From: Octopus vulgaris
Taxonomy: Eukaryota
Length of the DNA stretch: 64,000 nucleotides
Reading direction: 5' to 3'
Assembly (NCBI GenBank): GCA_951406725.2
Contig: OX597831.1
Location: 67,704,001-67,768,000, forward strand
Below are positions 11,372 to 52,410 of the stretch, piece after piece. A program made the position numbers and the translations under genes. A model generated the notes under the pieces. It saw nothing but the letters and a program-made list of their open reading frames with translations, had not been told where the DNA came from and searched no databases. How positions within the stretch are numbered: position 1 is the stretch's first letter; each line of letters begins with the position of its first letter.

Positions 11372-12049
11372 TCCCTCTCTCGCTCATTCTTCTTTCTGGT
11401 TTTCTCTACCATTCTCTCCCTTTCACGTTCCCTTTCTCTTACTCCTCCTCCTCCTCCTCCTCCCTCTCATCACTGACATGTGACCAGAGGCCATCTGTCT
11501 TTCTGACCACAGCCTTCAACAAGTGTAGACAGCTTCCTATCCCTTTCTTAAGCCGTTGTTCTCACGCGTTGAAAATAATTTTTCCTTCGTTCGGCTTAAC
11601 AATCCTTACTGTTCGTATTACTGTTATTCTACTTGTCCTGTCGTTTACTGTTTTTATTTGTATTTTTACTGCCTTGTATTGTTTTTACTGTCCTGTTTTT
11701 GTTACCACTTTTACCCCTCCACAAAAAAATCTCAAATTTTATTTAATTTGCTTTGCGGGAAGGACCGTTTCACAGAAGTCGTGTCTCGCCTTTACCTTCG
11801 AAACACGGACTAGACGAAACGGAGACGGCTGAAGAAGGGGAATGTTCCTTGTGTTGTATGTCTTGTACCAAGTTTTTTCGTTGTTTAAAAATAATGTCCG
11901 TTTCCATGGTTCCGCTTTTATGTTTTCATTTCTCATTGTGTTCGACGTTCTTTTGGTGTCCTGTACCCATATATGCATGTATATATACATATTGATGTAG
12001 GTACGTACATATATGTATGTATATATGCATGTTTTATTTATTATTTTGT

Positions 12050-46340: not shown

Positions 46341-46427
46341 AGAAGATAACCGGTCGCTATATATACATATACATATACATACATACATACATACATACAT
46401 ACATACAAACATACATACATACATACA

Positions 46428-46499
<72 letters not shown>

Positions 46500-46501
<2 letters not shown>

Positions 46502-46960
46502 TATAAAAATTATATATAAAAAGGGACAAGAACGTGAAATACACAAAGAGACGACACAAAAAACGGACGGGTCATTCGAAGCCTTTAATCTTCAGTCAGG
46601 AACCGGATCATCATAGCAAATTTCGGCTGATTAATCCTGATATTGCTCCGAAACGGCCAGCCTCAATGAAAAACTAAGTTGCGAGCATTAGATTTCTTGG
46701 AAAAAGGATCGAATGTAAACGAAACAAGGACAGAAAAACGGACGAAGCCACACGAATATAAATAAAAAAAACAAAAATAAAATTAAAAACAAGAATGGTA
46801 ATAACAGGACAACAGCAGGTGTCTTACGACTTTAGACAAATTTAACTTATCTAGCAGGCGTGTTTTGAAAAAATGCCTTTTCGGCGGACGAAGACAATGT
46901 TGAACCGGCAGGTCACGTGAGGGTAGAGAGAGAGAGAGAGAGAAAGAGAGAGAAGGAATT
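46500..46960 (-). mobile_element. TA-adjacent non-coding element (family P2) with permuted hammerhead at 46580-46658
   Basis: Same layout as P1 (CT-rich, then T-rich, ribozyme motif, T-rich tail into TA) but different sequence. Confidence 0.6.
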
Positions 46961-48094
46961 AAAGAGGATGTACGTATGTATGTGCATGAGCGCATAGACG
47001 TACATATGCACACTTGTTTACGCGTCTGCGCGTATATATATACATACATCTATATGCGCGTGTGTGCGTGTATATGAGTTTGTGAAAAAAACTAAGCATT
47101 TTTCAGAGTTTGTCGCTAATTCTGTTCTTAACCAAATTGAAAACTGTAAAACTTTTGGAAAAGGTACATTTTGGCATAAAAATGATTGAAATTTGGTCCA
47201 GTAGAAAAAAGTTTACATCAAAATTTTTAGTAACGCTATAGGAGAGTAAGTAACGCCATCAATCAAATTTAGATCTAAATTATTTTTTCATTTTAAATGC
47301 AAAATATACTTATCTTAGCTTCAGTGACAGAAGAAAACATGAGAACTTTCATAGTTTTGGTCCCATGCAACAAACATTTGTTTCAAAAAAGTTCAGAGGT
47401 AAAATATCATGAAAAAAATGTTAGGCAAAAAATTGGATTGAAGTATAAGGAACTTTTTTTAGATTTTAACAACAAACCATATTTTAATCAAGCTTAAATG
47501 ATAGGGCTCAATTCAAGGAATTTCATGGTATCAATCTCATGCAATGAAGTTTTAAAATAAAAAAGTTACCATAAAGGGTTTTGTTCCAGGAACTCATTCA
47601 ACCCGCACCTCTCCAACTACAGGTCCTCCTTCAGAGTTGTGAAAAGGAGATATGTAACCTCACTGGCCAGCCACGTCTGGCAACTAAGAGACGATGGGAT
47701 TCCATACTTGATCTCATAGAAAATCCTTGAGAATCCAGTCCCCTACATCAACGGGATGAAATGTGAGAATTCTAAAGGACTCGCTTGAACCAGGGAACAT
47801 TAACTCCAGAATGGATATTTTCGGGTCATGTTTACATTTTAGGTGGTCCCTGCTAGCGTTTTGGAGCCCACAAGATGGCGACACAACCAAAAATCAATAG
47901 CCAATAGCAAAAGGAGATAATCTCCAACTGTTACCTTTGAGTAGCGAGACATTTCCCCTCCTTATTTTGAAGAGGTCATGGGTCAACAGGTTTGTGGGAT
48001 ATGGTGATACACCATGAAACAAAACCCTTTATGAACGGAAAACCTAAGGTAATCCCATAAACCGGTCTTCCCCATTTTAATTATTTATTTATTT

Positions 48095-49779: not shown

Positions 49780-50455
49780 TATAATTATGACGCGAAACTC
49801 TATAACTCTTTCTTCTCTCTTTCGTTCACCCTCTTTGGCTTCCTTCCTCTCTATCTCTCTCTCACTCCTCCTCATCTCTCTCACAGCCGGATCGACGAAC
49901 TTCCTTTTGCTGACGGCCTCCTTCAAGTAAACATGTTTCTTCTTGCGCTCTTGAATTTTTCCTCGTCTAGGCTTATAGGCCCTCATTGTTTGTTTTCCTG
50001 TCCTGTTTCTATTCCTTCTTGTACTGTATTTTTTTGTAATTGTATTTTTATTTTGTAATTGTTTTTAATTGTATTGTTTTTACGTCCTGTTTTTGTCACT
50101 ATTTTTTTCCTTGTTTTTACCCCTCTGCAAAGGAATTTTATTTAATTCTTTCGCAGGAAGGATTAGTTCGACGAGTCGTGTTCTGTCCTCACCTTCGAAA
50201 CACGCTGGAGTTGAACTAGGGACAGCTGATGAAGGGGATTTTTCCTTGTGTAATTTGTCTTGTACTCTGTTTTTTTTTCGTTGTTAAAAAAAGGTCCGTG
50301 CCATGCTTGTTTTTACGTTTTCGTTTCTCGTTAAGTTCTACGTCTATTTGTGGTGTCCTGTACTCACGTATATATATTTATATATGCATGTATATATACT
50401 TGTAGATGTAGGTACGTACATATATGTATGTATGTATATATTTTATTTATTACAC
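49780..50455 (+). mobile_element. TA-flanked non-coding element (family P1) with permuted hammerhead at 50164-50245
   Basis: Diverged homolog of 11372-12052, directly upstream of the truncated PLE. Confidence 0.75.
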
Positions 50456-50487: not shown

Positions 50488-52410
50488 ATGTCGTTACATT
50501 GACGACATTATCGGTGCCACCTCACTCTCCCGTGAACATCTAGATTCCTTCCTCTCTTTCGTCCAATCTTTCCATCCAGCCCTCCACTTCACTTCCACTA
50601 TCTAAAACACCTCTGTCTCCTTCCTCAACATTTCGGTTAGCATTCTTCACTCCACTCTTACCACCTCCATTCACTACAAACACACAGACTCACACTCATA
50701 CCTCAACTTCTCTTCCTCCCACCCAGAACACACCAAGCTTTCCATCCCCTATTCCCAATTCCTCCGTCTACGTAGGCTCTGTAGTGACGACCATGACTTT
50801 GAGACTCAGTCTCAACATATGGCTCACCACTTCACCCTACGTGGATACCCCCTCACCACTATCCACACCGCCCTTGCCAGAGCACGGTCCGTGGACCGTG
50901 TATCTGCTCTCTCTCCCCGAACCCGCCCTGTAGTCTCCCGCCTCCCTTTTCCCCTCACTTACCACCCCACGATCCTACGTCTCCAACGCACCATTCTTCG
51001 AGCTTTCCGTCATCTCCAGTCCGACCCGTCCACTTCACACCTCTTCCCTAACCGACCCCTCCCCTCTTTCAAACGAGCCCACAACCTTCGAGACCTTTTG
51101 GTCCATAGCTCCTTCCCTGACCCTACCTCCCAGCCCGGCTCGTTCCCCTGCTCCCGCCCACGTTGCCGCACTTGCCCTTACCTCTCCAACACCACCCACC
51201 TCACTAGCACCCACCATCGACCCTATCCCATCATCCACTCCTTCACCTGCACCTCCAGCAATATTATCTATTGCGTCTCTTGCTCTCTCTGCAATTCCTT
51301 GTACATCGGACAAACGGGACGCCGCTTGGCTGACCGGTTCGCGGAACACCTTCGTGACATCCACCTTGCGAACGACACACCGGTCTCACGCCATTTCCGC
51401 TCCACCAGTCACTCCTTGCAACACCTATCTGTGTTTGGTTTGTCCTTACACAGAGGCCATCCGGATTCCCGTTTGCGCCGTGAACAGGAATTAATCTTCT
51501 CTCTTCGCTCTTATACGCCATTTGGTCTCAACTCTCCCCCCTCTCTCCCCCCTCCTCACCTATCCTTCCCCCCCCCCCGACCCCTACTTCTTCAGTCCTT
51601 CATCCTTTCACCCCCTACTCCCCTTCCCTTCTTCCCTCTTTCTCCCTCCCTCCTTCCCTCTTCCCTCTGCTCCCTCACTCCCCTTCTCTCCCCCGCCCCC
51701 TCTTTCCTCCTTCCTCCTTCCTCCCCTCCCCTCCCCTCCCCTTCCTTCCCCCTCCTCTCTCCCCCTCCCCTCCTCTTCCCCCTCCTCCCCCTCTTCTTCC
51801 CCTCCCCTTCTCCCCCTCTTCTCCCCCTCTTCTCCCCTTCTCCCCCTCTTCTCCTCACTACACCACACGACTTTACACATCACACCATATATGATGTGCC
51901 ATACTAATACATACACCAACTAATACATACTAATACGTACTAATACATACTAATACATACTAATACATACACCAACCCTATACATACACACGTCCAGACC
52001 CCTCATACGCACTTATACTCTCTCATACACACACACACACACTTATACATACTAATACGTACTAATACATACACCAACCCCATACATACGCCTGTCCAGA
52101 CCTATCCTAGGGTCATTCAACCCTATTATCAACCCTATTATCTCCCCTTATTTCGCTCTCGCGTCTCATGTTTGATCTTTGACCTCTGGCCGAAATCAGA
52201 TCGCCATGTTGATTCGTTAGTTACTGCACGCATTTTTTTTCTCTCCTTCTTTCTGTGTTTTTTTTCTCTCTGTGTATCTTTCTGTTGAAGAGCGTAGGCT
52301 CGAAACGTTAAAGACTTGTTTTATTTATATTTCCTGAGCGCCATACTAATACAATTGTTTGTTTGTTTTCCACCTGCCTTCGTCTTTTGTCTATTTTCAT
52401 AAAGCTTCCC
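50488..52410 (+). mobile_element. 5'-truncated Penelope-like element (RT C-terminus, GIY-YIG, CT-rich 3' region, hammerhead pLTR)
   Basis: RYIDDII at ~50493, IHYKHTDSHSYLNFSSSHP, CSRPRCRTC, IIYCVSCSLCNSLYIGQTGRRLADRFAEH. Begins and ends at TA repeats. Confidence 0.9.
52277..52314 (+). ncRNA. Minimal type I hammerhead-like motif (CUGUUGA core)
   Basis: TCTTT-CTGTTGA-A-GAGC(GTAG)GCTC-GAAA-CG-TT-AAAGA. Confidence 0.7.

Follow-up and report, generated by a model that had tools for sequence, protein, structure and literature searches.

The minus strand of Octopus vulgaris contig OX597831.1 (assembly GCA_951406725.2) carries, in a window of 64,000 nt (the whole stretch analysed, positions 67,704,001 to 67,768,000), the sequence words of a hammerhead ribozyme in rearranged order. 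This raises the question of how these words fold, whether the RNA would cut itself and what kind of element carries it. An initial annotation had placed a permuted hammerhead at 46580..46658, and its words all lie at the claimed minus-strand places between 46647 and 46580: AGCAA-TA (46647-46641), TTAATCAGCC-GAAA (46634-46621) and TTAAAGGCT (46588-46580). The interval contains these words and likely misses the 5' strand of stem II, which starts at 46662. The locus probably represents a hammerhead opened between A9 and G10.1 and predicted to cleave itself, housed in a short non-coding repeat for which Naiad-type Penelope-like elements (PLEs) are the likely means of mobilisation.

The architecture of the motif can be followed along the minus strand. 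From 5' to 3', the order is the stem II 5' strand, helix P, the stem III 3' strand, the UH cut site and the stem I 3' strand, continuing with the stem II 3' strand, GAAA, the stem III 5' strand, the helix P partner, the stem I 5' strand and CUGANGA. At the locus, the strand before GAAA (46629-46625) has a perfect 5-bp partner 22 nt upstream of the cut site, GGCTG (46658..46662, G10.1 at 46662), so that the motif begins with the stem II 5' strand, which does not follow A9 here. Directly following is the 5' strand of helix P (46650..46657), whose other strand, GATCCGGT (46602..46609), abuts the stem I 5' strand; six of its eight pairs form in the locus copy, in line with the partly kept outer helix described earlier. 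The stem III 3' strand AGCAA with U16.1 (46642) and A17 (46641) occupies 46641..46647, these core nucleotides being read in the sequence, and the stem I 3' strand TCAGGA occupies 46635..46640. The second half consists of the stem II 3' strand CAGCC with the core GAAA (G12 to A15.1; 46621..46629), the stem III 5' strand TTTGCT (46615..46620), with one bulged T in the subfamily of the locus, and the stem I 5' strand TCCTGA with the core CTGAAGA (C3 to A9; 46589..46601), the chain exiting the motif after A9. Both the perfect stem I, of 6 bp, and the single extra T in stem III had been correctly recognised. Since the strand before GAAA pairs best with the strand at the 5' end, the chain is opened between A9 and G10.1. 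The core nucleotides of a hammerhead (CUGANGA, GAAA and NUH) are all present, the boxes being search criteria; stems I and III are in register with the core and backed by covariation, and stem II is backed by complementarity across families.

The initial annotation had formed stem II differently, from AGCC and the downstream GGCT, and had seen in GATTAA/TTAATC a conformational switch. Under that arrangement the motif would be an ordinary type SGC hammerhead with stem II downstream of CUGAAGA. A 4-bp downstream partner does occur in the locus copy and, at offsets of 0 to 6, in 55 of 89 P2-superfamily cores, and the unrelated P1 family has a wobble-rich one. Yet pairing with GGCT requires a 5-nt insertion after A9, where insertions in the available text of Eckert 2023 are at most 1-2 nt (PMC10085705), and the upstream partner, to which helix P adjoins, pairs better. 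The upstream partner is found in 74 of the 89 cores and a stem II strand 0-2 nt after A9 in none of them. In the P2c subfamily, where four stem I pairs differ, the upstream partner is kept and the downstream GGCT is lost. As for the switch, its TTAA is a palindrome, and a direct repeat of a palindrome pairs with itself. An ordinary type SGC fold with a switch is accordingly very unlikely.

Covariation separates the two models in the same direction. The set comprised 24 P2-superfamily copies chosen for diversity and intact leaders; their relatedness inflates the counts, and the search pattern itself dictated the 3' strand of stem II. For the four-helix upstream model 90.6% of 576 cells were paired and 10 of 24 pairs had two-sided changes, four in stem I (95% paired), three in helix P (87% paired), three in stem III and none in stem II; none of 500 shuffles reached this score and slid controls were 16-44% paired. 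The downstream stem II with its switch was 76.7% paired, and neither part showed a two-sided change or did better than shuffles; the first two pairs of this model were broken in 10 and 7 of the 24 rows. Among 145 matches chosen on stems I and III only, after microsatellite leaders were dropped, upstream stem II and helix P beat the downstream alternative in 127 and lost in 16, and G10.1-C11.1 was present upstream in 133. The cleavage triplets of these matches were AUC (42), AUA (41), GUU (31), GUA (20), GUC (9) and other (2). At p<=0.01, the upstream stem II and helix P were significant in 7 of 20 clusters and the downstream partner in none. The 13 cluster representatives missing this threshold include that of the locus copy, at 27 of 1000; decay, mis-anchoring or a chance match affects several representatives. 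When leaders were swapped between families, a family's own leader averaged 22 vs 14 for foreign ones and was best in 10 of 20. A further wobble-rich helix between leader and tail (46580-46666, minus strand) was 86.9% paired, no better than shuffles and free of covariation; it could possibly close the opened junction or sequester stem II. Nested folding gave a z of -0.15 and did not recover the opened fold; it is uninformative on this fold because crossing helices and pseudoknots cannot be modelled by it.

The opened architecture is not confined to one family in the window. A six-permutation descriptor found the S-G-C block order at only two window sites, P1 at 50177-50237 and the P2 locus, upholding the earlier statement that the two have identical strand order. 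P1a (50157..50232, plus strand) is unrelated to P2 and has the same opened architecture with stem II GAAGG/CCTTC and a GUU triplet, which nearly all fetched P1a copies share. A relaxed search of the window added, near 11800, the diverged subfamily P1b (11759..11835, plus strand), of the same architecture with a GUC triplet; P1c has GUA. The final window descriptor, combining stems I and III, upstream stem II and helix P with thresholds fixed after seeing the matches, found three window sites and none in 100 dinucleotide shuffles. Rfam scans of the window and the locus returned no ribozyme family, and no hammerhead family at E<=10.

In the genome (2.8 Gb, 227 contigs), the superfamily pattern CAGCCGAAA-N23-27-CTGANGA had 10,633 matches vs 3 for a reversed control, the exact P2a 25-mer had 75 and the anchor of a large sister subfamily had 5,237. 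Two generic patterns built so as to leave out P1, P2 and the Naiad end gave 3,424 matches vs 745 in the control (GAAA..CUGAUGA) and 2,103 vs 1,248 (GAAA..CUGAAGA). Stems I and III were present in 8 of 60 loci taken from the generic patterns and absent from 52; the eight comprise five new families, each with an upstream stem II and a helix P of its own, as well as two decayed loci and one misfit. Another 20 loci picked by eye as repeat-like included nine with stems I and III. Many of the misses are truncated or decayed copies, and others are background. The matching stem II pairs are specific to their families: GGCTG/CAGCC, GAAGG/CCTTC, GACACC/GGTGTC, GCGCT/AGCGC, GCACCA/TGGTGC and GCCCAA/TTGGGC. 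Families with helix sequences of their own bear out the suggestion that rearranged hammerheads form a diversified class, carried by several non-coding retro-passengers that are unrelated to each other and insert into TA. In the P3 family (L190, L191, L212, L249, L250, L258, L263) some copies have stems I and III and stem II is weak on both sides; P3 may be a decayed or further variant.

These families also bear on the notion that the short words of the motif came together by chance and were then multiplied by a repeat. One expanded repeat does yield many non-independent copies, and L209 and L133, two clusters out of the 20, probably match by chance. Against this stand the 100 shuffles without a match and the recurrence of the same geometry with different helices in unrelated families and in the inspected ends of published Naiads. 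A chance origin, already contradicted by the cross-family data, is extremely improbable.

Two other repeat families were noted at the centres of fetched loci. One (L189, L200, L214) has GAAA upstream and CTGATGA inside a hairpin, and no hammerhead layout tried fits it. The other (L187, L188, L197, L213) combines GAAA and CTGATGA with what may be a stem I and, downstream, a 5-bp stem II, and no convincing stem III was found in it.

Non-circular permutations of the hammerhead, SGC, CSG and GCS, are described in the part of Eckert 2023 available to us (PMC10085705), and the S-G-C block order was therefore known in print. As presented there, the six-permutation scheme assumes that CUGAnGA and stem II are inseparable, and the non-circular types come essentially from environmental sequence alone. 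Like types SGC and CSG, the opened motif has the reversed ring order and the core, and its helix P corresponds to their helix that connects stems I and II at the outer ends. The difference is that the 5' strand of stem II no longer follows CUGAnGA and stands at the 5' end. The blocks S, G and C do occur in that order, but the motif is not type SGC, because block C is broken. Cleavage of types SGC and CSG was shown in the cited work, whereas that of the opened motif is predicted from sequence. As far as the published descriptors are given there, they cannot match the opened motif because they require stem II directly after the core. CSG, SGC and the opened form are one ring cut open at different points, the opened form at a fourth. 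A pseudoknot (pistol-like) hammerhead, PDB 8YDC (Zhan et al. 2024, PMC11300833), likewise combines a hammerhead core with a pseudoknotted periphery; according to the portion of that report at hand, helix II is replaced by a pseudoknot-forming loop, a connectivity unlike that of the opened motif. A description of the opened wiring, or of permuted hammerheads in Naiads, was not found in a literature search that left most subscription papers and preprint supplements outside its reach. What appears to be new is hence a hammerhead-type RNA, as predicted from its sequence, with a strand order not found in print and distinct from type SGC.

The host of the motif is an ORF-less tandem unit of 0.7-0.85 kb inserted in (TA)n, the longest Met-started frame of which is 93 aa. 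Tandem periods are 804 nt (L026), 713, 769, 844, 779 and, twice, 843 nt, and one locus (L299) contains three cores of identical sequence 843 nt apart. Of 30 P2a loci, 23 have their 3' end 140-144 nt beyond the predicted cut, and by a script rule TA repeats follow the 3' end in 20. The locus itself is a 5'-truncated copy (46500..46970, minus strand) that extends for about 141 nt beyond the predicted cut to its 3' end and is bordered at the 3' junction by a (TA)n/(TATG)n microsatellite (46359..46499) that is its likely target. Other P2 copies are also 5'-truncated and some are inverted, and a tail of about 37 nt occurs in L006, L008 and L013. Insertion in (TA)n, 5' truncation, partial tandem and inverted copies and a tail together match the insertion marks given for Penelope-like elements in Craig 2021 (PMC8557442). 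The insertion in L026 spans 1.2 units, passing the cut site twice. In another locus (L006:448-1918), six truncated P2a pieces lie head to tail 183-216 nt apart along with an inverted piece; five of them begin at the same point inside stem II and bear the tail. Contigs of four sequencing runs, which are not recorded as RNA and from which strand, ends and expression cannot be read, partly cover the P2 unit.

ORF-less tandem units with one hammerhead each are also the hallmark of animal non-LTR retrozymes, as described in the accessible parts of two reports (PMC7229834; 10.64898/2026.07.22.740005). Retrozymes have type I hammerheads, units of about 170-400 nt and circular RNAs that have been shown, whereas P2-type units are 700-850 nt long, have a pseudoknotted fold that is not type I and are known here from DNA. 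A dependence of animal non-LTR retrozymes on Penelope-like elements has been proposed in this literature. The hammerheads of canonical PLEs also differ from the opened motif, being of type I order with a minimal stem III and dimer-dependent in the sections seen of PMC4209133.

A coding partner for P2 was not found among 60 flanking loci, and a word-based protein search returned nothing. PLE fragments in two loci (L007, L031) were considered as partners and were taken as separate insertions, TA repeats separating them from the units. The P2 unit shows no DNA similarity to Naiad loci and, unlike Naiad PLEs, encodes no protein, with no ORF bearing GIY-YIG, CxC, DKA or RT. Naiads as described in the available part of Craig 2021 (PMC8557442) nevertheless share with P2 insertion in (TA)n, tandem and inverted copies, a 30-40 bp tail and core boxes in the 3' UTR. 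According to the same text, Naiads are without canonical hammerheads, the labels 'HHR_core' and 'HHR_half_core' are used, the latter for eight families, the core boxes in the 3' UTR are given with no fold, and hammerheads may be dispensable.

A motif taken from the 3' end of the published Octopus Naiad consensus had 523 genome matches vs 0 in the control, and this Naiad-end family has the same opened fold. Decayed RT pieces and the opened fold lie on one strand in L116 and L297, with other insertions between them, and in L122 everything between RT and the 3' end is colinear and the core is decayed. A profile search with one RT piece returned 587 proteins; an N-terminal GIY-YIG match was found in two of the seven long ones scanned, and CxC and DKA motifs were seen by eye in three full-length RT relatives. 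Pfam did not recognise the short Naiad fragments. The features of a Naiad ORF were present solely in relatives of this separate Naiad family bearing the same fold, and other Penelope-like clades and fragments are also found in the genome.

Of the 54 Naiad consensus sequences in print (Craig 2021 File S5, record names assigned by file order), 18 were inspected by eye over their last ~430 nt. The opened form is found in six of these 18 (Obim, Ovul, Esco, Movir-2, Chem-3 and Bfor), with one stem II mismatch in Esco and a very short stem I in Bfor, and type CSG with a long helix P in four (Nbra-2, Nbra-3, Hpol and Smim); neither fold was seen in the ~430 nt viewed of the other eight. Among the ends inspected, opened-fold Naiads come from a ctenophore, cnidarians and cephalopods, with the same five-part geometry and different helix sequences. 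Together, the opened and CSG forms cover 10 of the 18 ends, and the opened fold would explain the lack of hammerheads reported for Naiads in the text available, where core boxes appear without a fold (PMC8557442). Because P2 shares no Naiad DNA, we infer from the shared fold and target that P2 units are likely mobilised by Naiad-type Penelope-like elements.

Most likely, a tandem or read-through transcript would fold helices P and III and then II and I, and would be cut after H17 (A17, 46641), which puts the predicted cut between 46641 and 46640. Two such cuts would release a monomer of 0.7-0.85 kb whose two ends could rebuild the motif. By analogy with type I retrozymes, for which this has been shown, the monomer may be circularised. 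Reverse transcription by a Penelope-like RT/endonuclease, with the Naiad protein as the presumptive helper, would then be primed where (TA)n is nicked, starting on a TA-rich point that lies about 141 nt beyond the site. The resulting copy could be longer than a single unit, as it is in L026, an outcome that an uncut tandem template would explain equally well. With its bulged stem III and two mismatches in helix P, the locus copy is a less certain candidate for cleavage than the motif class.

An active form assembled from two copies or as a dimer in tandem transcripts would leave the opened fold intact. Tandem copies with periods of 713-844 nt could supply such pairs, and minimal type I hammerheads of canonical PLEs act as dimers according to the available part of PMC4209133. 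Since stem III of the opened motif is a full, non-palindromic helix of 4-7 bp, a monomer has every needed strand, and a dimeric form is highly improbable.

Junctions of 5'-truncated copies bear on cleavage by the opened motif under the premise that, if the RNA is cut, some reverse transcripts end at the cut; they were counted by eye. Among the first 100 of 316 matches in the sister subfamily with 5,237 anchors, there were 96 distinct TA-junction loci, of which 60 begin exactly at the predicted cut (2 ambiguous). Of the others, 7 start at +1/+2, 23 further upstream and 5 at -2/-3 despite the longer microhomology there, and 1 is unclear. A complementary pattern, with loci partly overlapping the first set, gave 36 at 0, 32 at +1/+2 and 28 upstream out of 96 (first 100 of 127 matches). 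Position -1 is C in 19 of 19 leader-intact copies of the sister subfamily. Counts for the other families were smaller: in P2c, 5 of 26 junctions lie at 0 (3 more ambiguous) and 1 at -2 (p=0.11); in P1b, 3 of 8 lie at the predicted cut; in P2a, 3 of 5 do so, ambiguously through microhomology; and in P1a, none of 6 TA junctions does. A GUU triplet is a poor hammerhead substrate. The pile-up is not unique to the cut, because in a control interval a larger one occurs at +10, with 61 junctions among the first 100 matches out of 538, and a smaller hot spot near +20. Junction density is high from 0 to +10 and drops just upstream of the predicted cut; across the families the junctions are mixed, and they support cleavage indirectly. 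The +10 hot spot of the P2 superfamily, the strongest among the 5' junctions, coincides with the start of the stem II 3' strand, for which AT microhomology is the sole explanation offered.

The same counts allow the fold to be hammerhead-derived and to cut negligibly or not at all, serving as a recognition or priming signal for a Penelope-like protein. The broken A9-G10.1 link has no match in the tested natural hammerheads found, copies end about 141 nt past the site and not at it, the hot spot at +10 exceeds that at 0, and P1a has many copies despite its GUU triplet and no junction at the cut site. A purely structural signal fits less well with the drop in junction density just 5' of the predicted cut and with the retention of the core boxes (themselves search criteria), NUH and G10.1-C11.1 across unrelated families and phyla. 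We regard a non-cutting signal as unlikely and retain the self-cleaving opened hammerhead as the probable form.

If the motif cleaves, the assumption that CUGAnGA and stem II are inseparable fails, and an animal genome has more than 10,000 copies missed by standard descriptors and Rfam. On balance, we lean towards a broader proposal as well: the opened form may be a seventh natural hammerhead wiring, active from comb jellies to cephalopods, in Naiads and in tens of thousands of non-coding passengers. Together with the CSG Naiads of nematodes and spiders, non-circular hammerheads would then be standard in animals, and Naiads would never have lost their ribozyme.

Two stretches of possible coding sequence were noted in the window. 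Shortly after P1a, across a TA repeat, a 418-aa open frame (50606-51859, plus strand) resembles that end of a canonical Penelope-like element which holds the thumb and GIY-YIG (Pfam GIY-YIG E 0.0096, a match that misses the cut-off). The segment 45430-46200 (minus strand) resembles the 3' coding end of a LINE reverse transcriptase.
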